A model generated the notes under the pieces. It was not told the DNA's origin, did no database searches, and worked only from the letters and a program-made list of their open reading frames with translations. The translations under genes were made by a program, and so were the position numbers. Positions 4,242 to 47,700 of a DNA stretch of 64,000 bases are shown here, piece after piece. Source of the DNA: Candidatus Doudnabacteria bacterium (GTDB lineage: Bacteria > Patescibacteriota > Doudnabacteria > UBA920); the NCBI GenBank assembly GCA_963768175.1, contig CAVYGQ010000001.1, positions 446,305 to 510,304 of the forward strand, written 5' to 3'. Positions within the stretch are counted from its first letter, which is position 1. Each line of letters opens with the position of its first letter.

Positions 4242-4268
4242 AGTAATCGCAAATATACAAATAAGAGT

Positions 4269-5155: not shown

Positions 5156-5220
5156 AATCTCACTTTAATTATAACACAGACTATCCTTTATCTTTGATCA
5201 ATAAATCGCTCGCTGCACCC

Positions 5221-5364
5221 GGCGTCATTCTGAGGCCTGAATAAATCTGCCTTTCGACTTTGCTCAAGGCACCCTGAGCGAAGCCGAATGGGTGAAGGCC
5301 GAAGAATCTCTTTGCCCTAGATTTTTAGATCCTTCGGTCGGATGCACTCCCTCAGGATGACGCC
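5221..5364. repeat. Family D MITE-like element (long copy)
   Basis: ggcgtcattctgagg ... cctcaggatgacgcc termini. Confidence 0.7.
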
Positions 5365-5455
5365 AATAGAGAATGCTACGTTTAATAATACCCCATCACA
5401 ATCTCTAAATTTAAAGCCATACTTGTCTGCCATGGGTAAAAGATTAAGAATAAAA

Positions 5456-5495
5456 GATGAAGGATGAAGGATGAAGGATGAAGGATGAAGGATGA
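5456..5495. repeat. Heptanucleotide tandem repeat (gatgaag/gaaggat) x about 5.5
   Basis: Direct tandem repeats are visible immediately 3' of the 5498..6376 gene. Confidence 0.8.
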
Positions 5496-5497
5496 TA

Positions 5498-6376: not shown

Positions 6377-6619
6377 TTAAGTCTTCTGCTCCATTCCCCT
6401 CCTTTCTAAGGAGGGGCTAGGGGAGGTTATTGTCTTAATTGCTGATTGCTTATTACTTACTGCTGACTGCTGACTGCTTGCCAGTATCTTTTCCAGCTCT
6501 CCCAATTGTTTATCGCTCATTGAATCCAAAAGCGCCAGCCATTCCGTCCGCTCCGAGACCGACAAAATTGCCGAAGACCTAACCAACCCTTTAATTTTTT
6601 CTATTTCCGCGATATTCAT
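6377..6619 (-). CDS. Hypothetical small protein with an in-frame family-B repeat (..ITSPSPSLERRGM..)
   Basis: 80-aa ORF. A 42-nt repeat at 6391..6432 lies inside it. Confidence 0.4.
   Translation of the reverse strand: MNIAEIEKIKGLVRSSAILSVSERTEWLALLDSMSDKQLGELEKILASSQQSAVSNKQSAIKTITSPSPSLERRGMEQKT
6391..6432. repeat. Family B palindromic repeat (ccattcccctcctttctaaggaggggctaggggaggttattg)
   Basis: Identical 42-mer at 7231..7272 and a related compound copy at 33652..33728. Hairpin CCCTCCTT/AAGGAGGG. Confidence 0.75.
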
Positions 6620-6740
6620 CTTATATAAAAGCTAAATTCCTATTTGACAAAAATATTAATATAATATATTTAGTTTTACAGAACCACTCCCGCAAGAAGG
6701 CGGGTTTTTTTATCTGGATAGGCTTTTGCTTTAAGTTTCT

Positions 6741-6832
6741 CCATAATTCCTAACTCCTAACTCCTAACTCCTAACTCCTAACTCCTAACTCCTAACTCCT
6801 AACTCCTAACTCCTAACTCCTAACTCCTAACT
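6741..6832. repeat. Heptanucleotide microsatellite (ctaactc/taactcc) x 13
   Basis: Perfect tandem array overlapping the stop codon of the 6827..8185 gene. Confidence 0.9.
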
Positions 6833-8185
6833 TTTAATTCCGTCCTGCGTCTTCTTCCTAAGTTCCTCCAACTTCCGGTCAATTTCCTGCTGCTTAGATT
6901 GTATATTCTGCGGCGCCGGCTTTTTCTCAAGCAAAGGATTTAAAACAAAAGACGAAGGATTTTTACCCTCTACATTTTCATTTGAAATTGCCTGCCCGCC
7001 AACCGCTGGAGCCGAAGGCGACTGCGGGCGGGGAAATTTGTTATTTGGAATTTTCTCTACCCCCTCTCCCATCTTAAGCCCCGCTGTTGTTTCCTCACTC
7101 CGATCCCTGTTCTTCAAAATATTTTGGATGTTCACCCTGCTGGGCATCACGCCGATACCCGTCCTATCTGTCCAATCAGTCTTATCCATCCTATTTTCTT
7201 CAGCAAACACCGGCTTCTGCAACCCCGCACCCATTCCCCTCCTTTCTAAGGAGGGGCTAGGGGAGGTTATTGGGTTGTTGAAAATTCCTTCCGACCTTCC
7301 GATTTCCGATTTCCGACCTTCTGATATTCCGACATCCGACATTCCGACCTTCCGATTCTCCGATGCGTTCTTTGGCACCGGCACTGCGGGCGGCTGCTGA
7401 TTGGTGATAGGTCGTGGAAGCTCATTTGATGACAATTGAAATTTCTGGGATTGCATATAAGGCAAACCCCCCGTAGTTTTCGTCTGTTCGCCTGGCTCTT
7501 CTGGAATAACTGCGGGCCCCGGCGGCGGAAATAGCAGCCAATCGTAAATTTCCAAAATTTGTTTAAGCACTTCCTTGTCGGTGTTATTAAGTTGGCTAGC
7601 TTGCCTATTATTATTGAAAAAATTAATCTGGTTAAACTTGTCCCTATTTACGGTTAAAGGCTGATTTGTATTGTAACTTTTTAACCAATTTTGAATAGTT
7701 GGCTGAACTGCGCCGACATCTAAACTCAAAGGTTTGTCACCCAACTTTTCTTGATTATTTTCTAAAGAATAAATCCAGCCGCGGCGAGTTTCCTTGTCCG
7801 GTCCAACGCGAAATTCATATATCCCTAATATTTTCTTTAGGCATTCGGAAACATTTACGCCCAATTTTATGGAATCGACTAAATTCTCAGACAAAATATT
7901 TTTACTCTGTTTAAGGGACATGGCCGGCATGGCCTTCCAAGAAAGCACCCACAAAACCGCCATTAATTGGTTATAAATTATTGGGTTAGCTTCCACTTGC
8001 CCCTGATTATCCTTTACCAACTTGTCCAATTGATCATAAAATTCCATTGCGCGCCCAGGCTCCAAATCAAACTCCGCGTCTTGAGCTAACTCAGACAATT
8101 TATCTAAAACACGCTGGTCAGCCAAAGCTTCAGCGTCAAGCAAAAATAAATTTTTTATATTCAATATGTCGGCGATACTAGCCAT
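6827..8185 (-). CDS. Hypothetical protein carrying in-frame repeat insertions (family B and TTCCGA tandem repeats)
   Basis: 452-aa ORF. The IGRSEGI.. and PSPSLERRGM segments are encoded by repeats at 7288..7365 and 7231..7272. Confidence 0.5.
   Translation of the reverse strand: MASIADILNIKNLFLLDAEALADQRVLDKLSELAQDAEFDLEPGRAMEFYDQLDKLVKDNQGQVEANPIIYNQLMAVLWVLSWKAMPAMSLKQSKNILSENLVDSIKLGVNVSECLKKILGIYEFRVGPDKETRRGWIYSLENNQEKLGDKPLSLDVGAVQPTIQNWLKSYNTNQPLTVNRDKFNQINFFNNNRQASQLNNTDKEVLKQILEIYDWLLFPPPGPAVIPEEPGEQTKTTGGLPYMQSQKFQLSSNELPRPITNQQPPAVPVPKNASENRKVGMSDVGISEGRKSEIGRSEGIFNNPITSPSPSLERRGMGAGLQKPVFAEENRMDKTDWTDRTGIGVMPSRVNIQNILKNRDRSEETTAGLKMGEGVEKIPNNKFPRPQSPSAPAVGGQAISNENVEGKNPSSFVLNPLLEKKPAPQNIQSKQQEIDRKLEELRKKTQDGIKS
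7231..7272. repeat. Family B palindromic repeat, intragenic in-frame copy
   Basis: Identical to 6391..6432. Confidence 0.75.
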
Positions 8186-8199
8186 AGTTGTTTTTTAAT

Positions 8200-11100
8200 T
8201 TAAATTGGCATCATATGGTCAATAAACAATTTTTCAGCTGCTGCTCTTTGTACCGGGGTCAAAGTTGATAATTTATTACCAGTTGGCAGGCGACCTGCCA
8301 CCGCTGCTATCTTACCAGTTACCTGGGCGGCAAAATCTGCCCTAGTCACTGCACGGCCTGCGATTGTAGCCGCATCAAAGGCGTTGCCTGCCAACGGTTG
8401 TAATTCTTTTCTTAATTCGGATATTTCTACAGGCGTTAACTTATAATCTTCATCTAGTCTACTAATTACGGTCATGGGGTTATATTTTTCCGAGTATTCG
8501 TCCCTAACTTTTTTGTATATTTCGTCCTTGATTGCGGTAACGTGTGTTACTGGCGCACGGGCAGTTGTAAAAGCAGAACGTATGTTTGCTTCTATTGTTG
8601 CCGGAGAACTTGCCCCTCTATAAACAGCATCAATCGCATTATCTATAACCTTACCTCCTCTTAAAGCGTCAGTTTCTTCCTTCTTTAATCCCAAAGTTTT
8701 GCTATCAATCACTTCAGTTGATACGGTCTTAATGACCGGGGTTACTGTTACTGTAGAGTCACCCAAATGAGCAACGGGGGTTGTTTTGCCGGCGGCATCC
8801 AGCTTTACCACCCTAATTCCTTTCACCTCAATAGGTTGCATATTGGTTAACTGCGCATACATGCTACGTACCAAATCCGGATTTTCTTCATACAAACTCT
8901 GGATACGCTTAACGTCAAGATCGTCTTTGACAATAACCGCTCCAGTGTTTTTATCTATATCATCACTTAAAATCCACTCCTTAGTTCTTCCTTGTGAGAA
9001 ACTCGCCTGCTGCAAAGTAGCGCCGTCAAACATAGACAAAACACCCCGTTGATATTCATCAAGCTCCCCACTGGTTCTTCCATACATTTGATCCTTAATT
9101 TCATTTACAGCGTCAATATTTCCACCTGCGTCCAGTTTCGCGCGGAGAGTCACCATATTATGTGGGGCAATTTGCGAGCGGGCACGCCCGCTGACTTTTT
9201 TCAGCTCGCCCACCGCATAATTAGTTTGCCAAGTATTTTTTAGCTTACCTCCCTTAATAGTTCTGCCTCCTACTCCTTTGGCATCGCCAACCAACTCCAT
9301 CCCCCGCTTAAACCTTTTTGAATCATTGTCATAATACGCATGCCCCAGATACTCATAGTGCCCTGTGGACTTGCCAAGTTCTTCAAGATCTTCAGCCATC
9401 AAGCGCTGGGCTTGTTCATCGTCGCCCAAATAACCGTACAAAAACCGGTTTAAAACTTCTGCGCTATAAAAAGTGCCATCGTCATCAGCATACTGGTCTG
9501 CAAAATGCTTTTTCCTAAGTAGGTCGTCCATATATCCTTGTTTGGCAGCTGCCAAGACAATAGCGCGGCGCCTTCTCTTGCCTTCTTCTCCGCCTAACTT
9601 TTCGGCATCTGCGGCCGCATCCATTAAACTTTCTTTACGCATGGTAGAATAGTCCTGAACCAAAGCATTTTCGTCTTTTCTTTCCGCAAATTGCCTATAA
9701 GGAATTTTTAACTTGCCCCTGGTTAAAAACCGTTCTGACATTTCACGCCCGCCTGCCGTAGCCGTGCCTTCTGCTTGATGCTTTAATTCCTCTGCGCGCT
9801 GTTGCCAGCCCTTAAAAAAAGCATCTGGGTTAGAAAGCAAAAATCCGGTTTTTTTCAAAAAGCCCGGTTTATGCTCGCCTTCCTGCTCTAAAAGCGAAGA
9901 ACCAATTTCCTGTCTCTTTCTGTTTACCCAGCCAACTCCTCTTCCAGCCAAAAACGCTGCACCCTGAAACGGAGCAAAGATTCCCTTTCTGGCTATGTCG
10001 GTTATCCCTTGGGCACCGTAGACGCCGGCCAAGGTGGCTACTTTTAAGGAGGCGATTAAAAAAACCAACAATAAAATATTACTTCCCAAGGTCACAATCA
10101 GGCTGGACAAACCGTTTTGTCCATTAAAAATGCTGGCGTTATTGGCCGCAATCTGCAATTGAGAATTGACAGTTGCATTGGTTGCCATTAAAGCTGCCAT
10201 GTTCAGGAAAAAGGCCATTATTGGTGTAAAAAAGGCGTATTTTAAAAACTCCTTCCACCATTTCTCCCTATACTGGGCCGTACTGGGCAAAACCCCAACG
10301 GCATAAGCCACGGGAGAAATCATTAGCAAAAGCCATAACATTACAATCCGGATTACCAAAAACGCCGCAATAGCGCCAAACACGGCAAGCGAGCCCAAGC
10401 TCATAGCCACCCAAAATACAGACGCAACTAATCCTCCAATACTACTATTTACCGCCGATGCGTTAGCGTTCTGCTGCCCTTGGAGGTAGTTCATTAATGT
10501 ACTATTATTTGTAGTCATTAATTTATAAGCCAACCCGTTTACTGACGCAGCGTCGGCAGGCAAAAACTGCGCCTGCACGGTGTCCGCCACGGCTAAAATA
10601 GACTGGCCAATGACCAAACTAAAGTTAATCAGCAAAGCCGCGATAATTAGTTGCACCAATAAATGCCGCGCTTTATAACTTTCCACGCGGAACAACGTGG
10701 CCATGGCAATAATAATCAATGCCACTATAAAAAATATATCGCACAGATTCCGAATGGTTTCCCAACCCGAATAAATAACCGCGACAAAAGTATCCTGATA
10801 AGCGTGAATACCAAGCACAGCAACAATCACTGGTGAAACAAGCAGGAAAAAAATTCCGTAAATAAGCTGCTGAATTGAAGCTAAGACAAAAGCGACTATC
10901 TCGTTTAATAATTGCATCAGCTTGTCGGTTACCCCCGGACCTGCATTGAGATTGTTTCCGGAACCTACGGCGCTGCCATATCCGGGAACGCATCCAGAAG
11001 GTATATTGGCTCCGGTGGTCGGATCGGTACCGGTGCAAGCAAGAGGCGGGCCTGTAACTTTATTGGCGTTTGCCTGGGTGTCATAAAGCTGGACATAAAA

Positions 11101-11850
11101 ACTATTACCACCTTTGAAATAAGTATTATAGGCGTGCGCGCCGGTAAGGGAATTGAAGTCTGTTGATAAATTTTGAAAATCAATTTCGGGGTAAGCATAA
11201 GCCTGGTTCGTTCCGCTATTTGGATCGGTCCCGTTATTAAGTTGGGTTATGCCTAAATCGGTAAAATTGGTCTTATCAATAGTAAATGTGTAATCAAAAA
11301 CAGGCTGCCCGGCTTGAAAGGTTGGGCCGCTAATTTTATTATTACTCTGAGTCGCATCAAAGTAGTTGTTTGGGTTACTGCACACATTGGAAATTAAACC
11401 AGTGCCTATGGGCCCCAATGACTGATTTCCACAAATTTGGGAAGTATTACTAGGCGTTAACACTGCTCCAAAACCTAACAGCTTTCCTGTATCCGGTGTT
11501 CCGCCTGGAGGTGTTGTGGTGCCGATATTAGTACTGTTAAAAGTCAGTGTCGGGGGACTTACAAGGGTAACTATAACCTCTATCGTAGAACTTCCATCCT
11601 GTTGGCCAAGACGAACGAAATTTGTAGTCTGGCCATTAATCTTTATGTCTGTTTTTAAAACTATGTCATTAAAATTACAAGTTTGTGCATTACCTTGGCT
11701 GGTGCCGCAGGTGCTATCAGCGGAAACGGTTATGGGAGTAAGTATCAACAAAACAAAAACCGCTAAAATAAAAGAAAACCACGGCCAGAGGCATTTGGCG
11801 GCAGTTTTGGTTGGGTTGGATTTATTTAAAACTTTTGGTTTCAAATGCAA
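8200..11850 (-). CDS. Giant polytopic membrane protein, VirB6/TrbL-like T4SS channel candidate
   Basis: 1216 aa. N-terminal signal/TM, then about 270 aa Thr/Gly/Asn-rich ectodomain, then about 8 TM helices (residues about 320-640), then about 560 aa charged cytoplasmic tail. Confidence 0.4.
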   Translation of the reverse strand: MHLKPKVLNKSNPTKTAAKCLWPWFSFILAVFVLLILTPITVSADSTCGTSQGNAQTCNFNDIVLKTDIKINGQTTNFVRLGQQDGSSTIEVIVTLVSPPTLTFNSTNIGTTTPPGGTPDTGKLLGFGAVLTPSNTSQICGNQSLGPIGTGLISNVCSNPNNYFDATQSNNKISGPTFQAGQPVFDYTFTIDKTNFTDLGITQLNNGTDPNSGTNQAYAYPEIDFQNLSTDFNSLTGAHAYNTYFKGGNSFYVQLYDTQANANKVTGPPLACTGTDPTTGANIPSGCVPGYGSAVGSGNNLNAGPGVTDKLMQLLNEIVAFVLASIQQLIYGIFFLLVSPVIVAVLGIHAYQDTFVAVIYSGWETIRNLCDIFFIVALIIIAMATLFRVESYKARHLLVQLIIAALLINFSLVIGQSILAVADTVQAQFLPADAASVNGLAYKLMTTNNSTLMNYLQGQQNANASAVNSSIGGLVASVFWVAMSLGSLAVFGAIAAFLVIRIVMLWLLLMISPVAYAVGVLPSTAQYREKWWKEFLKYAFFTPIMAFFLNMAALMATNATVNSQLQIAANNASIFNGQNGLSSLIVTLGSNILLLVFLIASLKVATLAGVYGAQGITDIARKGIFAPFQGAAFLAGRGVGWVNRKRQEIGSSLLEQEGEHKPGFLKKTGFLLSNPDAFFKGWQQRAEELKHQAEGTATAGGREMSERFLTRGKLKIPYRQFAERKDENALVQDYSTMRKESLMDAAADAEKLGGEEGKRRRRAIVLAAAKQGYMDDLLRKKHFADQYADDDGTFYSAEVLNRFLYGYLGDDEQAQRLMAEDLEELGKSTGHYEYLGHAYYDNDSKRFKRGMELVGDAKGVGGRTIKGGKLKNTWQTNYAVGELKKVSGRARSQIAPHNMVTLRAKLDAGGNIDAVNEIKDQMYGRTSGELDEYQRGVLSMFDGATLQQASFSQGRTKEWILSDDIDKNTGAVIVKDDLDVKRIQSLYEENPDLVRSMYAQLTNMQPIEVKGIRVVKLDAAGKTTPVAHLGDSTVTVTPVIKTVSTEVIDSKTLGLKKEETDALRGGKVIDNAIDAVYRGASSPATIEANIRSAFTTARAPVTHVTAIKDEIYKKVRDEYSEKYNPMTVISRLDEDYKLTPVEISELRKELQPLAGNAFDAATIAGRAVTRADFAAQVTGKIAAVAGRLPTGNKLSTLTPVQRAAAEKLFIDHMMPI

Positions 11851-12177: not shown

Positions 12178-12213
12178 CATGTTAGCATAAAATGCGGCCG
12201 CATTTTTTACTAA
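12178..12213. repeat. Family E palindrome (TTAGCATAAAATGCGGCCGCATTTT..), NotI-core hairpin
   Basis: Related copies at 12777..12816 and 47180..47213 flank gene ends. Confidence 0.7.
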
Positions 12214-12224
12214 CAAATTATCAA

Positions 12225-12749
12225 CTAAGACAACCCAAATTTCTTTTTTAAGTCCTTGTCGTTATCCATCTCTTCTACTTTTATTATCCTTATATAGCCG
12301 TCCAGTCCCGTTTCCAATAAATATTTTAAGGCTTCCCGATTTAAAGGATAAGGGTTAATATACACGCTGGCCTGTAATTTGCGGAAGTTGTTCCTTTTAA
12401 GCAAATCTCTTAGCTGATTTCTTTGCTGCTTGGCAGATTCCGGAATGTCAAATACCACCATTCTCCATTTACCGTCCCATTTACCGGCAACGGGCATTTT
12501 GGCTTTCGCCAATAAAATTTCCAGCTCTCCTTTTTTTGTGAGTTGTAAAAATCTCTTGCCATTCTTGCTTACAAATTTTATGGAACCGCGCTTTTTTAAG
12601 TTATAAGCAGCGCTCCTGTAAGAGTTATAACTTCTCCCGAATAAAAATTTACTTCTCAGAGCGTAAGGCGAGAACGCCATCATGGTTCCAACCGTAGCGT
12701 CAAGGGCGAACAAAATAGCATTGATGATTGTCGATTCCTTTTTTGGCAT
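12225..12749 (-). CDS. PaaX-family-like transcriptional regulator (wHTH plus WDGKW..FDIPE..LR..L...F..LQ.SVY core)
   Basis: 174 aa. The motif pattern W.G.W..V.FD.PE..R..R..LR..L...GF..L..SV resembles the PaaX family. Confidence 0.45.
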   Translation of the reverse strand: MPKKESTIINAILFALDATVGTMMAFSPYALRSKFLFGRSYNSYRSAAYNLKKRGSIKFVSKNGKRFLQLTKKGELEILLAKAKMPVAGKWDGKWRMVVFDIPESAKQQRNQLRDLLKRNNFRKLQASVYINPYPLNREALKYLLETGLDGYIRIIKVEEMDNDKDLKKKFGLS

Positions 12750-12776: not shown

Positions 12777-12816
12777 AATGTTAGTATAAACTGCGGCCGC
12801 ATTTTATGTCAACACC
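12777..12816. repeat. Family E palindrome
   Basis: atgttagtataaactgcggccgcattttatgtcaac. Confidence 0.65.
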
Positions 12817-12903: not shown

Positions 12904-14850
12904 TCAGCGAAGATTAAGTTGGGTTGCGGGACCGCGGGTTTGGATAACGGGCTTAGCGGTAAACACCCCGGCCACGGCCGGAGCTACAGAAGGCGAATTA
13001 AATCCCATCGTGCCTTCAATAACGTTTACTGTTCCTAAAACAACTGTGGAAACTAGATTTTCATTAGAGTCGTATATTTGGGCAGCTAAAGTATTAGACC
13101 CGACGGTAAAATTACTATCTATGGTGATAGTGTAGCCGCTCATCTGGTCGGCGGCTACGTCCTGGTAATTTTGCCCATTAACGACAAACGTTACGGTTCC
13201 GTCCGTAGGAAGGTTGGATGACGAAATGGGAATCTGGTCTCCCATACTATACTGGCTCTTTAGGCCTCCACTAACTGATATTTGGGGCGTAAGGGTGCTT
13301 GTGGCAATGTTATTACCGGAACCCTGCGCGATAAAACCAACCGTGGCATTAACGGCTTTATTTTCATTAATCAATGCGGTTTTGGCTCCGGCGCTGGCGC
13401 CGCCCAAAACCATACTCGTGCCGATTTGGGAAACTATGCCGGAAATGATATTCACAAAAGCCGGCAGGTTGCTACTATTGTATTGGGTTAAATCGCCCCC
13501 AACGGCTTTAAACATTGCGTCAATGCCCTGATTAACCAAAACCGCAGGTGAAGATATTGCTTCACACAAAACTATTGCCGGGTTGGTGTCTGTGCTGCCG
13601 GAGCTAGAGGTTAAAGCTTGCGGGGCATTGGTCCACGCCAGTGTAGCCGCATCTACGTCAGCTTGGGCCTTAGCGAGATCGGCAGCCGGGACATTCTTCC
13701 CTGCTTGCACGGCAGCCGTAAGGTTGTCCAGTACATTTTGGCGGTCCAGCATTTTGGCTTCCAAAGCTTGCGCTTGGGCGTCAATTTGTTTTTGCTGGGT
13801 CAAGGCCCCGGCGCAATTTACCGGCGCCTTATAACCGCTGCCCTGGCTAATCTGCTGTTGGGTAGTGGCCAAAGAAGCGGCGCGCGACTGGTTCACGCCG
13901 CCAACATAAGCTGTTTGCAAATAATACGGGTTGGCGCTGGGACTACCCATGGCCGCCATCTGTCCGTAAAAATTCGGGCTGGCCGGATTAATGGCCGACG
14001 GGTTAAAGCCCAAAGCCGCATTGGCGGCCACAAATATTCCGGGCTGGATTTGCGTGCGGAATAAAGGATTGCTTAAAATCGCGCGCGCCATTAGCTGGTC
14101 CTGCGCGTTAGGAAAATTCTCGCGGATAAACTGGTTATCATACATCAAGGTGGCCGCGGAATCTATATACTGCTTTAAGTTGGTAATTTTATAGTTTTGG
14201 ACCAAATGAGTAACCAAAGCATCGGCAATGGCTTTACTGGTTTGCAGCAAAATGCTAATCAGTAAAGTTTTCCAAAATCCTTGGTTGGCGTTATCTATCT
14301 GGGCCACCAAGTCGCCCTGCTTTTTTGTGTAAGTCGCGATGCTAGATTTAATCTGGGCTTCGTCTTGCTCCTTCATATTGCTGACATAAAGGCTGGTTGC
14401 CGCGAGTTTGGCAGCGGCAAGAGTTGTTAATTGCAAGTTGGCACAAATCAAAAAAATGCTATAAGCATCATTCAAAACTTCCATAGCTGCCAACCCCGTA
14501 CTATTCCCCGTTGGGCTTAAGACAGCTAAAGTAGAGTTTGCAACATTAGTTTGTACAAAAATCTGCTCTGCCACTTGCACTTTTGTGAGGCAAGCTTTAT
14601 AAGCTATAAATGGCGCGGACAATCCCGCTATTTCCGAGATATTTAGCGCCATACCAGCCAATCCTCCGGGATTATTACCGGCATTGGCATCGGCACTCGG
14701 TACTGCTTGCGCTAAAACAATCCCCGGCCAAAAGGCAAGCTGGCTGAAAATTAAAAAACCGGCAATGATTTTTTTTATTTTACCCCGCACCACTTTTTGA
14801 TGGTTATTAGGATTACTCAATTTTAAAATTTGTTCAGAATATTTTGCCAT
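12904..14850 (-). CDS. Hypothetical secreted protein with signal/TM anchor and Ala/Gln-rich coiled-coil segment
   Basis: 648-aa ORF with a hydrophobic N-terminus. Confidence 0.5.
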   Translation of the reverse strand: MAKYSEQILKLSNPNNHQKVVRGKIKKIIAGFLIFSQLAFWPGIVLAQAVPSADANAGNNPGGLAGMALNISEIAGLSAPFIAYKACLTKVQVAEQIFVQTNVANSTLAVLSPTGNSTGLAAMEVLNDAYSIFLICANLQLTTLAAAKLAATSLYVSNMKEQDEAQIKSSIATYTKKQGDLVAQIDNANQGFWKTLLISILLQTSKAIADALVTHLVQNYKITNLKQYIDSAATLMYDNQFIRENFPNAQDQLMARAILSNPLFRTQIQPGIFVAANAALGFNPSAINPASPNFYGQMAAMGSPSANPYYLQTAYVGGVNQSRAASLATTQQQISQGSGYKAPVNCAGALTQQKQIDAQAQALEAKMLDRQNVLDNLTAAVQAGKNVPAADLAKAQADVDAATLAWTNAPQALTSSSGSTDTNPAIVLCEAISSPAVLVNQGIDAMFKAVGGDLTQYNSSNLPAFVNIISGIVSQIGTSMVLGGASAGAKTALINENKAVNATVGFIAQGSGNNIATSTLTPQISVSGGLKSQYSMGDQIPISSSNLPTDGTVTFVVNGQNYQDVAADQMSGYTITIDSNFTVGSNTLAAQIYDSNENLVSTVVLGTVNVIEGTMGFNSPSVAPAVAGVFTAKPVIQTRGPATQLNLR

Positions 14851-14881
14851 ATAGGATAAAAACTAAAAAGTGGTGTGGGGT

Positions 14882-18013: not shown

Positions 18014-18031
18014 AGAAGTTTCTGTTTTTCC

Positions 18032-18124
18032 GGCGTCATCCTGAGTCCGAATGCATCTGAGGACGAAGGATCTCTATCCAAGAATGAGATCCTTCGGTCG
18101 GATGCACTCCCTCAGGATGACGCC
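18032..18124. repeat. Family D MITE-like element
   Basis: ggcgtcatcctgag...cctcaggatgacgcc. Confidence 0.75.
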
Positions 18125-18131
18125 GGCTCAC

Positions 18132-20441
18132 TTAAGTTAATTCATACTCCAATTCTTCCCCGTCATCGCGAAAATGCTCCTTGGCCATTCCCTTTAAAGC
18201 TACCTTATCGCGCGGCAAGACTTTTAAAATCCGCGAGGGCTGGCTAATTTGCACGTTGCCAAAAACGCGGCGGTTATGCGTATAGACCAAAAACAGGCGC
18301 TTGCGCGCGCGCGTCAGACCAACGTAAGCCAGGCGGATTTCTTCACTAAGCTCGCTTGGGTCTATCAGGCTGCGGCTGTGCGGCAATATCCCCTCTTCCA
18401 AGCCGACAAAAAACACGTTATCAAATTCCAAACCTTTGGCGGAATGAAGCGTCATTAACGTTACTGCGTCTTTGCTTTCGTCTTTTTGGTCAATTTCCGA
18501 AATGAGCGCGACTTCTTCCAAAAACTCCCGCAACGCTTCCCGCCAAGGTGTATTGCCGAACTTGTGGGCGACATTAACCAACTCTTCAACGTTTTCCCAG
18601 CGCGTTTCCCCTTTTTCGCTGCCGTCGCGCAAATATTTTCCATAACCGGTCTTTTTTAAAATGAGCTTCATCAGCTCCGGCAAAGTGAACTTCCCGTCAA
18701 ATTCGGAAAATCCCTCAATTAGCCCAAAAAACTCCTGTGCCGCCTGCCAGGCTTTAGGCTGGATTTTAACCCCCACACCAAATTTATTTTTAGATACAGT
18801 TAAGGCCAATTCAGATAAATTCTGATCTTTAAAATCGTCTGATTGATTAAAAGATTTGGTGTGGGGGTGAATATCGGCAAAGGCAATTCGGAAGTCGGAA
18901 GTCGGAGAATCCGCTTTTCCGATTTTCCGATTTTCCGATGACGCAATATTGGAATTATACTGATTAAAGTTTAAAATAAAATCCCTAATTACCGCATACG
19001 ATTTATCCCCAATCCCACGCGGCGGCTCGTTAATTACCCGCCTAAGCGAAACCAAGTCGCGGAAATTCAAAGTCAGGCGCAAATACCCCAGCAGGTCTTT
19101 TATTTCCTTGCGTTCGTAAAATTTTAACCCGCCGACAATTTGGTAAGGGATGGAAGCTTCTATCATAACCTCTTCCAAAGCGCGCGACTGCGCGTGGGTC
19201 CGGTATAAAACGCAAAACTCTTTTAAGCTTTCGTGCTTTTTGGATAGTTGCGGGATAAACCCCCGGCCGAATGAAGATGGGTATTTGGCCTGCAATTTTT
19301 TTGCTTTGATAAATCTATCAAGAATGGAAAAAGGCTTGGGTTCGGCCTGATCAAAATCCGCCTCATACGTTGAATCCCCGCTTCCGCGTCCGTCCGCGTT
19401 AAATTCCGCGTCCGTCCGCGTGGATAATTTGATTATCCACCGCGCCACAAATTCGGCCTCGGCGCGCTCGTCTTCCTCGCAGGTTAAAATGATTTTTTCT
19501 CCCTGGACGTTTTCGGTCCACAAAGTTTTGGGTTTTTGCTCCGGGTTCATTTCAATAACTTTTTGCGCGGCATTCAAAATATTTTTGGTACTGCGATAAT
19601 TCTGCTCCAGCTTAATTAACAAACCTTCGGGATAGTCTTTTTCAAAATTTAAAATATTGGTAATGTCGCTACCGCGGAATTTATAAATGCTTTGGGCGTC
19701 GTCCCCCACCACAAAGATATTGTGATGGATTGCCAGCAAAGACAGCAACCGATACTGCACCGGATTTGTGTCCTGATATTCGTCCACCAGCACATAGCTG
19801 AACTTTTTTTGGTATTTTGCCAGAACTTTAGAGAAATTCTCAAAAATTTTTACCATAAGCAAGAGCAGATCGTCAAAGTCCAAAGCGTTTTGTTTGTACA
19901 ACGCGTCCTGATAACGCGCGTAAACCTCGGCCAGTTTTTCGCGCATCGGCGATTCTAATCCTAAATTTAAATCTGCCGGAAGCTGCAATAAATTTTTGGC
20001 GCGCGAAATCAGGGCGCCAAACAAAGACGGCGGCATTTTTTTGCTGTCTATCCTTAAATCCTCCAAAATTTCCCGCAAAACTTTTTGCTGGTCGTCGGTG
20101 TCAAAAATTACAAAGTCGGAAGCGTAGCCCAAGACCGCAATCTCACGGCGCAAGATTCTGGCGCAAACCGAATGGAACGTGCCCATGGTCAGGCTTTCGG
20201 CTGCACCTTTATAGCGGGCCAAAAGTTTTGCCACCCTGCTCCTCATTTCCTTGGCCGCCTTGTTGGTAAAAGTCAGGGCTAAAATGTGCTCGGGTTTCAC
20301 TATGCGCTTATCTATAATATAAGCAATGCGGTACGTCAAAGTTTTGGTCTTCCCGCTGCCCGGCCCGGCCAACACCAAAACCGGCCCCAAGGGAGCTTCT
20401 ACGGCCTGTCGTTGTTTGTCGTTTAGAGAAGATAGATCCAT
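18132..20441 (-). CDS. uvrD: UvrD/PcrA-family ATP-dependent DNA helicase
   Basis: 769 aa. GPGSGKT Walker A and the usual UvrD motifs. It contains small in-frame tandem repeats at 18886..18940 and 19382..19421. Confidence 0.85.
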   Translation of the reverse strand: MDLSSLNDKQRQAVEAPLGPVLVLAGPGSGKTKTLTYRIAYIIDKRIVKPEHILALTFTNKAAKEMRSRVAKLLARYKGAAESLTMGTFHSVCARILRREIAVLGYASDFVIFDTDDQQKVLREILEDLRIDSKKMPPSLFGALISRAKNLLQLPADLNLGLESPMREKLAEVYARYQDALYKQNALDFDDLLLLMVKIFENFSKVLAKYQKKFSYVLVDEYQDTNPVQYRLLSLLAIHHNIFVVGDDAQSIYKFRGSDITNILNFEKDYPEGLLIKLEQNYRSTKNILNAAQKVIEMNPEQKPKTLWTENVQGEKIILTCEEDERAEAEFVARWIIKLSTRTDAEFNADGRGSGDSTYEADFDQAEPKPFSILDRFIKAKKLQAKYPSSFGRGFIPQLSKKHESLKEFCVLYRTHAQSRALEEVMIEASIPYQIVGGLKFYERKEIKDLLGYLRLTLNFRDLVSLRRVINEPPRGIGDKSYAVIRDFILNFNQYNSNIASSENRKIGKADSPTSDFRIAFADIHPHTKSFNQSDDFKDQNLSELALTVSKNKFGVGVKIQPKAWQAAQEFFGLIEGFSEFDGKFTLPELMKLILKKTGYGKYLRDGSEKGETRWENVEELVNVAHKFGNTPWREALREFLEEVALISEIDQKDESKDAVTLMTLHSAKGLEFDNVFFVGLEEGILPHSRSLIDPSELSEEIRLAYVGLTRARKRLFLVYTHNRRVFGNVQISQPSRILKVLPRDKVALKGMAKEHFRDDGEELEYELT

Positions 20442-27752: not shown

Positions 27753-28481
27753 TTAGTAAATTTTTCGCCAGCGTTTAAAAGCTTTAACATCCGAAGAATT
27801 CAAATTAAACCATTCACCCCTCTTCCGTTTAGATGTAAATCTAGTATGCCAGTATTTCTCAATACCATCCATATCGTCTGTTTCTATCTCATGAATCAAT
27901 TTAAACGGTTCCGACCCTAGTAATGTAATGTCTTCTCGACGACGGTTTGCGTCCTTTGCTTTACCAATTTTATAATCTCCATGTTGCTTGCCTAAATAAA
28001 CAAAACCTTTAGATACTAATGGATCCTCAGAGGTCCTGTCTAGATTTTCAAATCCCTCAAAAACTAAATTACATATTTCTACAATGTCCTTATATTTTTT
28101 TTTGTTTTCAACGAATTCAAGAATAGTTTTTGCCAGATTTCTTGTTAAACCAAGTTTTTTATAAAATGTTGCTGAGTTGGGAAAGCTCAAATCATTGTGA
28201 TGTTTAACATCTAAATCACCTCTCGTTGGCCATTTACGCTTTTCACGAATAACAGTTATAAAAATTTCACATAATTGATCATGACTATATTTAGTTTTAT
28301 CAAACTTATTAGGAGTTAATCCTGCTTCACGAACGAGTTCGCCGTAATTAGACCAGTGTTTCATTCGTTCATATCTATTGACATCAGTGTTTTCGTAAAA
28401 GCTTGACTCGCTTGGTGTCTTGCCGTCATTCAACTGAGTATACTTTTGGATTTCCTTTATTATCTCATCTTTTGTAAACAT
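27753..28481 (-). CDS. T5orf172/GIY-YIG-like (DUF4357-type) domain protein
   Basis: C-terminal YKIGKAKD..RR...L.....EPFKLIHEIETDD...IEKYWHTRF...R.RGEWF pattern. Confidence 0.55.
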   Translation of the reverse strand: MFTKDEIIKEIQKYTQLNDGKTPSESSFYENTDVNRYERMKHWSNYGELVREAGLTPNKFDKTKYSHDQLCEIFITVIREKRKWPTRGDLDVKHHNDLSFPNSATFYKKLGLTRNLAKTILEFVENKKKYKDIVEICNLVFEGFENLDRTSEDPLVSKGFVYLGKQHGDYKIGKAKDANRRREDITLLGSEPFKLIHEIETDDMDGIEKYWHTRFTSKRKRGEWFNLNSSDVKAFKRWRKIY

Positions 28482-28531: not shown

Positions 28532-28605
28532 TGGCTGGGGTGCCAGGATTCGGACCTGGGATCAGCGGTTCAGAGCCGCTTGCCTTACCGCTTGGCTACA
28601 CCCCA
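28532..28605 (-). tRNA. tRNA-Gln (anticodon CTG), CCA encoded
   Basis: Manual fold. Acceptor TGGGGTG/CACCCCA, D arm GCC-AAGCGGTAA-GGC, anticodon stem AGCGG/CCGCT with loop CTCTGAA, T arm CCAGG-TCCGAAT-CCTGG. 74 nt. Confidence 0.8.
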
Positions 28606-29043: not shown

Positions 29044-29316
29044 ATGCAATATGTCTATATTTTGCAGTCAGAAAAGGACAAAAAATTTTATACAGGGTAT
29101 ACAAAAAATTTAAAATTAAGATTTGAGCAACATAAGAAGGGCCAAGTTAAATCAACTAACGATCGCAGGCCGCTTAAACTAATTTACCATGAAGCGTGCT
29201 TAAACCAGCAAGATGCTACCCATCGCGAAAAGTACCTAAAAACCTACCTTGGAAAAATGTTTATTAAAAAACGGCTCAAATCTTATTTCAACCTGTTAAA
29301 TAGTTTCACTTTGTGA
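29044..29316 (+). CDS. Small GIY-YIG nuclease-family protein (second paralogue)
   Basis: YVYILQS...KFYTGYTKNLKLRFEQHKKG. Confidence 0.65.
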   Translation: MQYVYILQSEKDKKFYTGYTKNLKLRFEQHKKGQVKSTNDRRPLKLIYHEACLNQQDATHREKYLKTYLGKMFIKKRLKSYFNLLNSFTL

Positions 29317-29889: not shown

Positions 29890-29897
29890 TGGAAAAA

Positions 29898-29928
29898 CAG
29901 GGGACACCTCTGGAAGAGGTGTCCCCTG
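29898..29928. terminator. Family A palindrome (CAGGGGACACCTCT ggaag AGGTGTCCCCTG) acting as a hairpin after the gene end, followed by TTTTC
   Basis: Perfect 14-bp inverted repeat directly after the stop at 29889. Confidence 0.55.
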
Positions 29929-29938
29929 TTTTCATTGA

Positions 29939-42744: not shown

Positions 42745-42987
42745 CTATTGAGTTCCTGAAAATAACGGATACTGAAAAATAAAACCGTGCTCTTTCAAAT
42801 AAGGGCAAGAAAAAGTTTGAATAGATAGCGCCTTATTAGATGGATTAGCATTTTCAGAGATGTGTTCATCAAGATCGTGATTTTGAATGCTTTTGCCGGC
42901 GTTCCAAGCAACAAACCATGCCACCCCTATGATTATTATCAAAATAATTAAGACAATATAAATATACATTTTTGTCATTTGTTTCAA
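42745..42987 (-). CDS. Hypothetical small protein with an N-terminal TM or signal
   Basis: 80-aa ORF. Confidence 0.3.
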   Translation of the reverse strand: MKQMTKMYIYIVLIILIIIIGVAWFVAWNAGKSIQNHDLDEHISENANPSNKALSIQTFSCPYLKEHGFIFQYPLFSGTQ

Positions 42988-43053
42988 CTTTTAAATAAGT
43001 TCAATCCCCCTGTCAGTATAACAAAAATACCGCTAATTAATAAATGTTCCCTG

Positions 43054-43246
43054 TGGAGCGGAATACCAGAATCGAACTGGCGCCCTTAGCTGCCCCGTCA
43101 CAAATAGATAGTTCGTGGAGCGAGTGAGCAGAATCGAACTGCCGTCTTCAGCTTGGGAAGCTGACATACTACCACTGTACTACACTCGCATCAACATTTG
43201 TGACGGGGCTTGGGAAGCTAATGTACTGCCACTATACTAATTCCGC
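43054..43246 (-). tRNA. tRNA-Gly(CCC)-like gene interrupted in the anticodon loop by a 119-nt insert (intron-like) that contains another tRNA
   Basis: Exons fold perfectly. Acceptor GCGGAAT/ATTCCGC, D arm GTAT-AGTGGCA-GTAC, anticodon stem TTAGC/GCTAA with loop TTCCCAA, T arm GCCAG-TTCGATT-CTGGT, CCA encoded. The insert is bounded by a 14-bp inverted repeat GCCCCGTCACAAAT / ATTTGTGACGGGGC. Confidence 0.6.
43116..43189 (-). tRNA. tRNA-Gly (anticodon CCC), complete, nested inside the insert of the outer tRNA-Gly-like gene
   Basis: Manual fold. Acceptor GCGAGTG/CACTCGC, D arm GTAC-AGTGGTA-GTAT, anticodon stem TCAGC/GCTGA with loop TTCCCAA, T arm GGCAG-TTCGATT-CTGCT, CCA encoded. 74 nt. Confidence 0.8.
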
Positions 43247-43255
43247 AAAAATTGG

Positions 43256-43295
43256 CTTGTTGACTTTTTGCGCGGCCGCGCAAAAAGTCAACAAG
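43256..43295. promoter_or_regulatory. Perfect 40-nt palindrome CTTGTTGACTTTTTGCGCGGCCGCGCAAAAAGTCAACAAG immediately 5' of the tRNA-Gly locus
   Basis: Exact reverse-complement symmetry. Contains TTGACT -35-like hexamers on both strands. Confidence 0.4.
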
Positions 43296-43365
43296 ATATT
43301 TAAAAAATATTTAACAAATTGCCCCACAGCAAGCTACAAGGAAATCTTCTTCATTATAGCAAATT

Positions 43366-43983
43366 TTACTTTGGTTTAATAAGCGGCACAAATACGAATC
43401 CCCAATGATCTTTGGATTTAAAATTGTCCTCGCCAATTTTATCCAGCACCGTAATTTTATCTGTTAAAGGCATCACCAGCCTGCCGCCAACTTTGAGCTG
43501 GGTTTTTAGCGCCTGGGGGATTTCGCCAGCCGAAGCCGATACCAATATGCGGTCATATTGTGCATAGTCTGGCAGGCCGTCCCAGCCCGAACCGATAAAT
43601 AATTTAATATTTTTCGGTTTATACTTTTCCAAATTTTTCCGCCCGAAATCGTAAATTTCCGGAAAAAGCTCCAACCCGAAAATTTTGCCTTTGCTCCCCA
43701 CGATTTTGGAAAGCATGGCCGTAGTCCAGCCGCTGCCAAAGCCGACATCCAAAACTTTTTGTCCGGGCTTGGCTTCCAGTAAATCCAGCATAAACGCCAC
43801 GGTATAAGGCTGAGAAATTGTCTGGCCAAATTCCAGCGTCAAGGGGTGGTTTTCGTAAGCCATACTTTTTAAATCGGCCGGCACAAAATCCTTGCGGTCA
43901 ATTTCTTTGAACGCGCGCAAAACCCGCGGGTTCTGCAAAACCCTTTCGTTTAATAGGTCTTTGATTAGTTCCAGCCTCTCCAT
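43366..43983 (-). CDS. pcm: Protein-L-isoaspartate O-methyltransferase
   Basis: ISQPYTVAFMLDLL...VLDVGFGSGW motifs. Confidence 0.85.
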   Translation of the reverse strand: MERLELIKDLLNERVLQNPRVLRAFKEIDRKDFVPADLKSMAYENHPLTLEFGQTISQPYTVAFMLDLLEAKPGQKVLDVGFGSGWTTAMLSKIVGSKGKIFGLELFPEIYDFGRKNLEKYKPKNIKLFIGSGWDGLPDYAQYDRILVSASAGEIPQALKTQLKVGGRLVMPLTDKITVLDKIGEDNFKSKDHWGFVFVPLIKPK

Positions 43984-45603: not shown

Positions 45604-45698
45604 AGTTAACTAATAACCAATAATTTATAACAATAACTGGACATCCTATATTTTGAGGGATATCGGGGAGCGTGCTTGCGCGCTCCCCGACTAGCCGA

Positions 45699-45920
45699 CT
45701 ACGCCGCCACTGCCCAAGACACAAACTGGACTGGGTTCTCCGCGAGGTACTTTCCTTTCGAAACAACGCTACCAGACGGCAGCTCTACCGTTTGGTGGCC
45801 GCAATTCGGGCATACCAACCCTATGGGACCACCCACACAGCTGTTCTCGTGCACCAAGTGGTGCGAACTTCCACCACATTTCGTGCACTTACGTGCTCTG
45901 AATTCTTGTGCGACGATCAA
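45699..45920 (-). CDS. Possible small zinc-ribbon protein (C-x2-C ... C-x2-C)
   Basis: 73 aa with CTKCGG....CPNCGH. It lies in a GC-rich noncoding-looking stretch, so this is uncertain. Confidence 0.25.
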   Translation of the reverse strand: MIVAQEFRARKCTKCGGSSHHLVHENSCVGGPIGLVCPNCGHQTVELPSGSVVSKGKYLAENPVQFVSWAVAA

Positions 45921-46161
45921 GGTTCCTCCTTGGACACTATGATAAATTTACGAAGATACCCGCAACCGCTTAATCGCCTAATCCGCCGCGCGGCAGAAAA
46001 GTTACGGACACCAGCCGAAAACCTACCCACTAAAAAAGAGCCCTTTTGCAAGGGCTCTTTGGAAAAATTCCAAATTTAATCAGCCCTTGCTTAGCAAAGG
46101 CATCAACATTCCGCTAAATTGGGCTATTCTGTAATTCATAAGCTTATGTTAATATTAACTT

Positions 46162-47163
46162 ATGATAAAAAAACCGTCAAGTTTATATCACCCCCTAACC
46201 CCCTCTTACATTAAGAGGGGGAAACTCTTGGTTGTCGGCAGCGTGGCGTTTGACAATATACAAACGCCGTTTGGGAAAATAAGCAAAACTTTGGGCGGCA
46301 GCGCCAGCTATTTTTCTTTGGCCGCGAGTTTTTTTACCAAGCCTTACGTGGTGGCCGTGGTGGGGAATGATTTTACCTATAAATACAAGGAAATTTTAAA
46401 AAAGAAAAAAATTGACTTATCGGGATTAGAAACAACCAAAGGCCAAAGCTTTCACTGGGGCGGCAAGTATAGCTTTGATTTAAACAACCGCGATACCCTG
46501 TTTACGCATTTAAACGTCTTTGAACATTTTAAACCCAAACTTTTAGAACACCATAAAACCGCCTCTTATGTGTTTTTAGGTAACATCCACCCAGAACTTC
46601 AGCTTGACGTTTTGAGCCAAATAAAAAAACCAAAACTGGTGGGGCTGGATACCATGAATTTTTGGATAGAAAAAGCGCCACAGGAGCTGGCTAAAGTGTT
46701 AAAGCTGACGGATATTTTTGTGATAAACGATTCCGAAGCGCGGGAACTTTCCGGAGAACATAACTTGATGAAGGCCGCCAGAAAAATAATCAAAATGATG
46801 CCCAAAGGCAGAGGTGTCCCCTCTGCAACAGAGGGGACACCTCTGCCACCCGTGCTAATTATCAAGCGCGGGGAATATGGACTGCTGATGTTCGGCAAAA
46901 ACCAGATTTTCCACTTGCCCGGCTTCCCGCTTGAAGACGTTATAGATCCCACCGGCGCGGGCGACAGCTTTGCCGGCGGACTTTTTGGCTACCTAAGCAA
47001 AACCGAAGACAGCTCCTGGGAAAACCTAAAACGAGCATGTGTAGCCGGTTCGGTATTAGCCAGTTTTGGCGTGGAAAAGCTCGGCACCCAAAGGTTACAA
47101 GAAATAACCCAAAACGACATTAACGAGCGTTTTGGGGAATTTAAAAAATTGACAGATTTTTAA
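46162..47163 (+). CDS. PfkB-family carbohydrate kinase (ribokinase-like) carrying an in-frame 41-nt family-A palindrome (KGRGVPSATEGTPLP)
   Basis: DPTGAGDSFAGG signature near the C-terminus. The perfect palindrome GGCAGAGGTGTCCCCTCTGCAACAGAGGGGACACCTCTGCC at 46807..46847 stays in frame. Confidence 0.8.
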   Translation: MIKKPSSLYHPLTPSYIKRGKLLVVGSVAFDNIQTPFGKISKTLGGSASYFSLAASFFTKPYVVAVVGNDFTYKYKEILKKKKIDLSGLETTKGQSFHWGGKYSFDLNNRDTLFTHLNVFEHFKPKLLEHHKTASYVFLGNIHPELQLDVLSQIKKPKLVGLDTMNFWIEKAPQELAKVLKLTDIFVINDSEARELSGEHNLMKAARKIIKMMPKGRGVPSATEGTPLPPVLIIKRGEYGLLMFGKNQIFHLPGFPLEDVIDPTGAGDSFAGGLFGYLSKTEDSSWENLKRACVAGSVLASFGVEKLGTQRLQEITQNDINERFGEFKKLTDF

Positions 47164-47179
47164 GCTTACTAAAAAATTT

Positions 47180-47213
47180 GTTAGCATAAAATGCGGCCGC
47201 ATTTTATGCTAAC
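47180..47213. terminator. Family E perfect palindrome GTTAGCATAAAATGCGGCCGCATTTTATGCTAAC after the kinase gene
   Basis: 34-nt perfect inverted repeat, 17 nt after the stop. Confidence 0.5.
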
Positions 47214-47339
47214 AGTCCTGTTTAACAAATATTATAAACGCCGTGGCAGGTGTTTTTTTGTTTTGACCAAAACTATTATCAAGAATACAATAAACGTATG
47301 TTGGCCTTCTGGCCAGCAATACATCGCTAGCTGATGCTA

Positions 47340-47700
47340 GCTTTCAGGAGGAACCGAAGTGCCATTTCAGGACTTTCCGCCGCTGTCAGGGCCGCCATCA
47401 GGTGAGGCCTTGGCTGCCAAACCCTGGAGGCCCGGCGATACCGTCGGGCGACAACCAGTCATCGATACCGACCATCCCGCTATCGTTCCTGCTGGCACCG
47501 CCAGCCCGAACGTCGGGAAGTGCCGGCCTACCGGCACCGCTACGGGATCGGGGGTTGACCCGCTTCTGATCGGATAACCCGGCCCCGATGCGCCCCCGCC
47601 AAAGTCCGGCCAAAAGCGCGGAACTAGCTAGTCGCACTTAAAGCCAAAACGCAACCTGCGGCGGGAAGTTCACACCTTGAACTTCCCGCCGCCTCACCTC
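47340..47700. other. GC-rich (about 65%) noncoding-looking block upstream of glnII. Contains an AGGAGG-N7-GTG small ORF (47359..47577) and a 14-bp-stem hairpin at 47658..47692
   Basis: Compositional contrast with the flanking AT-rich DNA. Candidate promoter TTGACA-N18-TATAAT at about 47752..47790 downstream of it. Confidence 0.35.

Follow-up and report, generated by a model that had tools for sequence, protein, structure and literature searches.

Architecture of the nested tRNA-Gly(CCC) locus

The 64,000-nt stretch of Candidatus Doudnabacteria contig CAVYGQ010000001.1 analysed in this study (the window) carries, at 43054-43246 on the minus strand, one tRNA-Gly(CCC) gene nested in the anticodon loop of another. 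The inner gene was called by ARAGORN at 43116-43189 (-) and matched Rfam family RF00005 with 68.3 bits (gathering score, 29), and the outer gene (43054-43246, -) was called by ARAGORN run with intron detection as i(37,119), i.e. with a 119-nt insert at the canonical position 37/38. The nesting, the size and position of the insert, and an inverted repeat of 14 bp around the inner tRNA had been proposed from the letters of the DNA, with ARAGORN in this mode as a check, and all were borne out. The outer halves had been placed at 43191..43246 and 43054..43072, which was wrong; the insert occupies 43092-43210 and the outer parts lie at 43211-43246 and 43054-43091.

Read in the tRNA sense, the locus begins with the outer 5' part (43211-43246, -; delimited by ARAGORN with introns), which comprises the 5' strand of the acceptor stem, the D arm, the 5' strand of the anticodon stem and the loop up to A37. 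The insert that follows (43092-43210, -) consists of a single A, the 5' arm of the inverted repeat (GCCCCGTCACAAAT, 43196-43209, -, of the family GCCCCGNACNAAAT), a 6-nt spacer, the inner tRNA, a 10-nt spacer and the 3' arm (ATTTGTGACGGGGC, 43092-43105, -). The two arms are exactly complementary (14/14 bp), and no further copies of this repeat with up to 3 mismatches were found above chance level elsewhere in the window. The inner tRNA (43116-43189, -) is complete, with U73, an encoded CCA and no stem mismatches, and is presumed to be functional. It accounts for 74 of the 119 nt of the insert, which encodes no protein. The outer 3' part (43054-43091, -) contains A38, the 3' strand of the anticodon stem, the variable loop, the T arm, the 3' strand of the acceptor stem, U73 and CCA. 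The boundaries of the insert, and with them the junction, are ambiguous within a 3-nt repeat, AGC.

When the insert is precisely removed in silico, the outer junction reads CATTAGCTTCCCA|AGCTAAGGGCGCC (longer joined form, CATTAGCTTCCCAAGCTAAGGGCGCC) and the resulting tRNA is recognised by ARAGORN at default settings. It has the T-loop TTCGATT and 19 Watson-Crick plus 2 G-U pairs with 0 stem mismatches, so that the arms, which had been predicted to be perfect, are so if G-U is counted as a pair but not otherwise. Since the outer gene is identical at 73/74 positions to a real, uninterrupted tRNA gene of sister genomes (see below), it cannot be a chance cloverleaf. The inner and outer tRNAs are identical at only 53/71 positions, and the inner one is therefore not a local duplicate. 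In the predicted fold of the 193-nt RNA (-73.4 kcal/mol, z = -4.25), the acceptor and anticodon stems of the outer tRNA are preserved, together with the 14-bp helix and the stems of the inner tRNA.

Right after the stop codon of the upstream PCMT gene is an extended -10-like box, TGCTATAAT (43353-43361, -), also found at the sister locus, where it lies ~25 nt upstream of the uninterrupted tRNA in contig L148; it is a candidate promoter of the tRNA transcript. Between this box and the outer tRNA is a 40-nt perfect palindrome (43256-43295, core GCGGCCGC) followed by a T-run. It is missing at the sister locus, the spacer being ~120 nt in the window versus 34 nt in L148, and it appears to be another palindromic insertion of terminator-like form. 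Related 36-nt palindromes (TGTTAGCATAAAATGCGGCCGCATTTTATGCTAACA) occur at 12180-12215, 12779-12814 and 47179-47214.

Host lineage and the empty site in sister genomes

Both tRNA-Gly genes have U73 and the tRNA-Gln gene has U1-A72 and G73, which are bacterial identity elements, and, among named homologues, those nearest to the flanking PCMT and to a UvrD-like helicase belong to Patescibacteria, e.g. Doudnabacteria. The host is therefore a bacterium of the candidate phyla radiation (CPR). An archaeal origin is ruled out by these identity elements and homologues and by the geometry of the junction.

Three sister contigs from independent samples (L148, L149 and L150) encode a PCMT 89% identical to that of the window and share with it the gene order PfkB-PEPC-PCMT-...-HisRS. 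Their PCMT gene is followed downstream by an uninterrupted tRNA-Gly(CCC) that equals the window outer gene minus the insert at 73/74 positions, the sole difference being one D-loop base; apart from this base, the outer 5' part of the window is L148 4650-4685. MAFFT had put the empty alleles onto the inner tRNA, and the filled and empty loci were compared directly. The empty site reads TTCCCAAGC|TAAGG and the filled site TTCCCA[AGC]CCCGTCAC...GTGACGGGGC[AGC]TAAGG. The empty sister site and the 73/74 match establish the insert as a DNA-level gain in the lineage of the window. Two possibilities had been raised at the outset, that other strains would have an uninterrupted outer gene and that this locus would be a decayed pseudogene: the former is the case, but the outer copy in the window, at one base from the sister gene, has not decayed. 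The comparison across the lineage proposed then revealed the nested arrangement in relatives (see below) and the uninterrupted gene in the three sisters.

In the slightly more distant contig L151 (PCMT, 85% identity), the same site holds an uninterrupted tRNA-Gly(CCC) of another sequence type. Distant PCMT homologues (~55% identity) have a different gene order and no tRNA downstream, and provided no further syntenic sites.

The sequence TTCCCAAGC also occurs as a conserved motif 45 nt upstream of the tRNA-Gly(CCC) anticodon loop in many genomes of Mycobacterium/Actinomycetota (loci L026, L038, L057, L061, L071, L077, L086, L088, L089 and L092). No CPR-type arms are present at these actinobacterial loci, and the motif there is probably unrelated to the cassette, perhaps being a leader or an att remnant.

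Other members of the inverted-repeat family in the window

A second family member, with the arms CCCCCACACCAAAT/ATTTGGTGTGGGGG and a non-tRNA interior of ~70 nt, is located within the UvrD/PcrA-like helicase gene (18771-18872, -). It forms a clean in-frame insertion of 102 nt (34 codons) that is missing from 13/13 aligned helicase homologues. At the DNA level the site is empty, with no target duplication, in L162 and L163, the latter from the same sample as the sister genome L149. The third member (14783-14880; arms CCCCGCACCACTTTTT/AAAAAGTGGTGTGGGG) spans the start and first codons of the ORF at 12904-14850 (-), the 648-aa product of which has its start codon inside this copy. Presence/absence polymorphism at orthologous sites was thus observed both at the tRNA site (L148/L149/L150) and at the helicase site (L162/L163 and the 13 proteins). 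The cassette in the tRNA gene shows features of a miniature inverted-repeat transposable element, namely terminal inverted repeats (14/14 bp), a total length of 119 nt and no transposase gene inside. With regard to target duplication, AG/AGC is repeated at the tRNA site (CAAG in relatives) and nothing is repeated at the helicase site.

The window contains several other palindrome families, some of them within ORFs. Palindromes resembling GCAGAGGTGTCCCCTCTGC are present at 46807-46847, 313-351 and 29894-29932, the first of which lies within the PfkB ORF and encodes ...RGVPSATEGTPLPP... in the product. This PfkB has 333 aa, compared with 296 and 323 aa in sister assemblies, which points to one more palindromic insertion in frame. 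At 18030-18126, between the genes for the rRNA dimethylase and the helicase, a perfect 16-bp inverted repeat (CCGGCGTCATCCTGAG / CTCAGGATGACGCCGG, 65 nt between the arms) has a cassette-like architecture but an arm sequence different from that of the tRNA cassette family.

Recurrence, nesting and arm covariation in CPR genomes

Species-representative genomes were scanned for two Gly(CCC) anticodon loops too close together for tandem genes, and the matches were filtered; the first pattern scan gave 120 genome matches, most of which were low-complexity or chance. Gly(CCC)-in-Gly(CCC) nests with the identical junction were found in Falkowbacteria, Berkelbacteria, Moraniibacteriota, Uhrbacteria, Paceibacterota, Saccharibacteria and further metagenome-assembled genomes (MAGs). 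Most of them share the motif TTCCCAAG-CCCCG(N)AC(N)AAAT...ATTT(N)GT(N)CGGGG-CAAG; in some (L025, L056 and L113) the arms are degenerate or absent. The nests reach a depth of three, and the inner and outer tRNAs are co-oriented in all of them. At the locus L128, which is syntenic with the window, there are three layers with the outermost one decayed. In the Falkowbacteria contig VMTK01000019.1 (L008; ~7535-7885, + coordinates), three different tRNA-Gly(CCC) form a perfect three-deep nest, all stems being intact and each layer being bounded by AGCCCCGCACCAAAT...TTTGGTGCGGGGCA. From genome to genome, tRNA sequence types occupy different layers, and the types at the syntenic site are not the same (L151 and L128), which fits serial replacement.

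A context-free scan of metagenomes for the two arms (GCCCCGCACCAAAT-like) returned 26 loci. The arms bracket a tRNA in 16 of these, with the specificities Arg-GCG, Pro-GGG/TGG/CGG, Gly-CCC, Val-CAC, Ser-CGA, Leu-CAA/TAG or Glu-CTC, and for several of the cargo tRNAs (Pro, Leu and Val) the surrounding sequence can be seen to be the remains of a tRNA whose anticodon, or the readable part of it, is the same. At the remaining 10/26 loci the arms surround unrelated sequence or occur in arrays. In one contig (L126, 50-310), short hairpins with arms of this family (GCCCCGTACCAAAT...ATTTGGTTCGGGG) are repeated in tandem, separated by 13-nt linkers, CAGGATTAAATTC. Altogether the architecture is present in >15 unrelated MAGs and metagenome contigs. 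Pattern scans of viral_contigs, made with a phage vector in mind, gave no match.

The interiors of the family (70-110 nt) are mutually unrelated in sequence. The arms covary strongly: 96.4% of the cells are paired and compensatory double changes occur at 9/15 pairs, values that 0/500 shuffles reached, and the covariation extends to two positions left free by the search pattern. It would seem that the hairpin itself, as single-stranded DNA or RNA, is what propagates.

Decay of the outer layers

In all 11 Gly nests the innermost tRNA is without stem mismatches, in contrast to the outer layers, which are degraded in 7 of 12 (hypergeometric, one-sided p ~0.003, our own calculation). Stem mismatches number 4 in the outer layer of L016 and 7 in that of L024, the outer 3' half is lost in L048, L107 and L076, and the outermost layer of L128 and the outer layer of L046 have been invaded by other palindromes. 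The five intact outer layers are those of the window, L008 (both), L037 and L128 (middle). In the close relatives L142 and L144, the element and its tRNA are identical at 111/111 positions and the outer 5' part differs at 2/33. Several of the outer tRNAs that are interrupted more than once (L124, L132, L133, L140, L142 and L146) do not yield a 7-nt anticodon loop under simple excision rules. A tRNA interrupted by a hairpin alone, with no replacement cargo, was not found in ~50 CPR loci, in which only edge artefacts gave this appearance.

Two smaller palindromes recur in this setting. A 20-nt palindrome, CCTGCCTGCCGGCAGGCAGG, is found across CPR genomes (L046 at 291-310 and 2067-2086, L107 at 3959-3978, L138, L145 and L146), often within outer disrupted tRNA copies: it lies in the D-loop in L046 and at position 31/32 in L107, and a variant is present in L020. 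A 15-nt family, TCCGCC-NNN-GGCGGA, behaves in the same way (L128, L130, L136 and L138).

A probable replacement-carrying mobile cassette and its alternatives

The comparisons above demonstrate insertion at the DNA level, membership in a family, recurrence and nesting, covariation of the arms and decay of outer layers. We consider it likely that the locus arose by recent insertion of a 119-nt, protein-less, hairpin-ended mobile DNA cassette, with a foreign tRNA-Gly(CCC) as its cargo, into the resident tRNA-Gly(CCC). Of the two alternatives offered by the original prediction, the one upheld is thus a tRNA-carrying element with inverted-repeat ends that has disrupted a tRNA gene; the support comes from the empty sister site, the occurrence of the family at non-tRNA sites and the recurrent nesting with outer decay in relatives. 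Insertion would have taken place in the lineage of the window genome at the 3' edge of the anticodon loop, TTCCCAAG|. The locus would still be transcribed from the old promoter, and the inner tRNA, released by RNase P and 3'-end processing, would take over the decoding of GGG. The two outer pieces would then be by-products, and the outer gene a fresh pseudogene that is expected to decay. The cassette belongs to a widespread CPR family defined by covarying GCCCCGCACCAAAT-like arms, with varied tRNAs or unrelated sequence as the interior. Since each inserted tRNA re-creates the target site, further copies can insert, and nests of up to three layers result. When the tRNA gene hit is essential and single-copy, an insertion can persist only where its cargo takes over the lost function, which would explain why cargo and host share the anticodon; same-anticodon nesting may thus reflect a site preference for TTCCCAAG| together with survivorship of the complementing insertions. 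In the window, the outer flanks are of the resident type as far as the junction, which seems to exclude homologous recombination there.

As for the mobilising enzyme, our guess is a single-strand transposase of the HUH type acting in trans, because the helicase site shows no target duplication and, at each of the two solved sites, one and the same end of the element adjoins 5'-CTTG or 5'-GTTA. On the strand in which the element reads extension + CCCC...GGGG, the downstream flank is 5'-CTTG in the tRNA gene and 5'-GTTA in the helicase gene (GTCA in the sister); the pattern is not general among other family members. Several observations weigh against a cassette of this kind. A scan of 50 ORFs of the 64-kb window against Pfam detected no transposase, RAYT, Y1 or IS91-type gene, and neither the window nor the other loci analysed contained an autonomous element with the same arms. 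The element ends and the rule for target choice are derived from two solved empty sites, and the one in the tRNA gene is equally compatible with target duplication of 2-4 bp (AG/AGC; CAAG in relatives). The cassette model offers no mechanism for the strict same-site, same-anticodon pattern, the terminator-like 40-nt palindrome separates the putative promoter from the tRNAs, and five perfectly intact outer layers would also be expected if the outer tRNA were functional and spliced. Under the cassette explanation the intact layers are accounted for by youth, which is established only for the window.

The other original alternative, an intron or a split tRNA in need of ligation, gained no positive support, there being neither a group I/II signal nor bulge-helix-bulge (BHB) geometry. 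A split or permuted gene was rejected, as the halves are collinear on one strand, 119 nt apart, and a relative has the uninterrupted gene. If the insert were an RNA-level intron of a new bacterial class, an endonuclease would cut at the ends of the 14-bp helix, a ligase would rejoin the outer tRNA and the inner one would be freed by RNase P and 3' processing, so that one gene would yield two (or three) functional tRNA-Gly(CCC) and the DNA polymorphism would represent intron mobility. The insert does lie at the canonical 37/38, and the predicted fold retains all helices (z = -4.25). The arm sequence is conserved, with pairing that covaries across phyla, the co-orientation of inner and outer tRNAs is without exception, and the outer layers listed above are fully intact. 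Several outer tRNAs also contain multiple hairpin insertions at different positions, recalling the multi-intron tRNAs of archaea. However, no Rfam match to a group I or II intron was obtained at the gathering score in the whole window, or even at E <= 10 in 42900-43400; the group I core (P3-P9, RF00028) is lacking and the insert is shorter than the ~180 nt or more of such introns. At its exon-intron junctions a BHB motif has a 4-bp helix flanked by two bulges of 3 nt each, whereas here the internal loop between the anticodon stem and the 14-bp helix is asymmetric (7 nt versus 1-2 nt; 7/1 in the window), and an alternative 4-bp pairing (UUCC/GGGG) leaves a 5' loop of ~8 nt in place of a 3-nt bulge. 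Moreover, the junction is offset by one base, removal corresponding to the helix plus 2 nt in relatives and plus 1 nt in the window, and an enzyme measuring from the helix would therefore leave a 6- or 8-nt anticodon loop in the window. Decay affects 7/12 outer but 0/11 inner layers, some nests (L025, L056 and L113) have degenerate arms or none, the same family occurs in frame within the helicase ORF and at a gene start, and cargo-less hairpin 'introns' were not found in otherwise intact tRNAs. In the suggested check for a splicing enzyme, the Pfam scan showed no EndA-family endonuclease or RtcB-type ligase among the 50 ORFs of the 64-kb window. We consider RNA-level splicing of the outer tRNA unlikely, and such an intron class doubtful. 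It is improbable, too, that Patescibacteria have an undescribed, protein-dependent tRNA splicing system that recognises the conserved helix, with the nested loci polycistronic and every layer functional; if true, helix-recognising splicing would be the first intron class in Bacteria other than groups I and II.

A variant of the cassette explanation that also acts on DNA but with a different engine is homing or gene conversion, in which a free-standing nuclease, e.g. of the GIY-YIG type, cuts the anticodon region of uninterrupted tRNA-Gly(CCC) genes and repair copies an interrupted allele from relatives. This would suit the recurrence of insertions at exactly the same site in diverse tRNA-Gly types and the recursive nesting, and the window has three GIY-YIG-type ORFs (T5orf172/MUG113 and GIY-YIG domains; 27753-28481, 29044-29316 and 4312-4596), one of which ends 50 nt from a tRNA-Gln (28532-28605) in a low-GC patch (36.5% over 28-30 kb). 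These ORFs may be free-standing homing nucleases, but they are not linked to the elements. The window outer flanks are the resident gene of the sister up to the junction, with the lineage-specific anticodon stem TTAGC/GCTAA kept, and there is therefore no co-conversion tract; the family also occupies unrelated sites such as the helicase ORF, for which no homologous donor allele is expected. We regard homing as having little probability here. An assembly artefact, by which two tRNA-Gly(CCC) genes were mis-joined at shared anticodon-loop k-mers, is highly improbable. Although both tRNAs share 13 nt (AGCTTCCCAAGCT) around the anticodon loop and an independent Logan contig (L001) breaks ~100 nt before the locus, in the 40-nt palindrome, a chimera would not produce a perfect 14-bp inverted repeat belonging to a family whose arms flank tRNAs in dozens of assemblies made independently, nor restore a 73/74 match to the sister gene on both sides, nor account for the same architecture in the unrelated MAGs and metagenome contigs.

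Other features of the window

An ORF-less, GC-rich island (64% GC versus 46% for the window) at 47335-47700 ends in a 15-bp hairpin and is missing in the sister genome, in which the PfkB-GlnA spacer is ~155 nt as compared with ~900 nt in the window. It is strongly structured on both strands (z = -4.6 and -3.6) and matches no Rfam family; it may be an unknown RNA gene or foreign DNA. Another ORF-less and comparatively GC-rich region (45660-46060, 54% GC), between the genes for an archaeal-type PEP carboxylase and PfkB, likewise has no Rfam match, and only its last ~94 nt are kept in the sister genome. Genes resembling those for type IV secretion/conjugation lie at 1502-11850; their products are a P-loop ATPase of the TraG/VirB4 type, a member of the PrgI family and a 1216-aa protein that weakly matches TrbL/VirB6. 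A protein with a Cas2-like/PaaX_M domain is encoded at 12225-12749.

Comparison with known systems

REPIN-RAYT systems are recognised by an exclusively extragenic location, a palindromic core in each REP and a single-copy RAYT gene. REPINs are REP doublets that form hairpins and are mobilised by RAYT transposases; they are ~100-130 nt long, non-autonomous and multi-copy (PMC3116915). The cassette family is similar to REPINs (PMC3116915) in having conserved inverted arms around a variable spacer and a predicted hairpin, the pairing here being held by compensatory changes. In contrast to REPINs, its arms are not small palindromes and have no GTAG/CGTC tag, its copies reside in tRNA genes, an ORF and a gene start, its spacer can be a whole tRNA gene, and the family is common to many CPR lineages, with no RAYT in the window. 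Rickettsia palindromic elements (RPEs) are small palindromes that insert in frame into protein-coding genes of a reduced genome (PMC10969869), as the 102-nt, 34-codon insertion in the helicase gene does. No sequence kinship is expected. The cassettes carry tRNA genes and nest in anticodon loops and, to our knowledge, RPEs do neither.

Members of the IS91 family (HUH, rolling-circle) cause no target duplication and use a target, 5'-CTTG/GTTC/GTCC, that adjoins one end (PMC13181058), and they are described as tending to mobilise arbitrary adjacent DNA (PMC13181058; PMC3189936). In the cassette family, the same end is likewise bordered by 5'-CTTG (tRNA site) and by 5'-GTTA (helicase site; GTCA in the sister), a resemblance seen at two junctions. 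IS91 ends, however, are two different subterminal palindromes, whereas the cassette has one long terminal inverted repeat, and no HUH transposase was found in the 64-kb window.

Introns in bacterial tRNA genes have been reported only as group I and, rarely, group II (PMC13011429). In the tRNA anticodon loops of bacteria, including Patescibacteria, the group I introns are self-splicing ribozymes of 184-894 nt, the tRNA hosts of which are missed by standard annotation (PMC13011429). The cassette also interrupts the anticodon loop in the same phylum, and its host tRNA is likewise missed, but it has 119 nt, no group I core, and a helix plus a tRNA instead. Archaeal tRNA intervening sequences behave as mobile elements according to a summary of Fujishima et al. 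(PMC10714607). With archaeal BHB, split or transposed introns the cassette shares the position 37/38 and, in some relatives, multiple insertions per tRNA; it differs from them in its bacterial host, the lack of a bulge-helix-bulge and of a splicing endonuclease in the window, and the decay of outer copies. The cassette resembles tRNA-targeting integrative elements in breaking a tRNA gene and making up for the loss. Such elements, however, span kilobases, have an integrase gene and duplicate, as att sites, no more than the 3' part of the tRNA, whereas the 119-nt cassette supplies a whole, sequence-distinct tRNA and encodes no protein.

Neither nested tRNA genes nor this hairpin family, which is apparently both widespread and undescribed, turned up in a full-text literature search. 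The family points to a new mode of tRNA gene turnover, in which a protein-less hairpin cassette breaks an essential RNA gene and supplies the replacement; such a cassette is therefore hard to lose, and further copies can nest in it. The sequence types of tRNAs appear to move horizontally among CPR phyla. For annotation, default tRNA finders overlook the outer genes of nests, and heavily interrupted tRNA-like sequences left in CPR genomes should be counted neither as introns nor as missing tRNAs. These very small genomes are, moreover, riddled with several families of palindromic elements, some of them translated inside ORFs. The cassette is a small, non-autonomous, palindromic mobile element, the closest kinds being REPINs, RPEs and IS91-type miniature elements; as none of these carries a tRNA or targets anticodon loops, it is the unusual cargo and target that are new.

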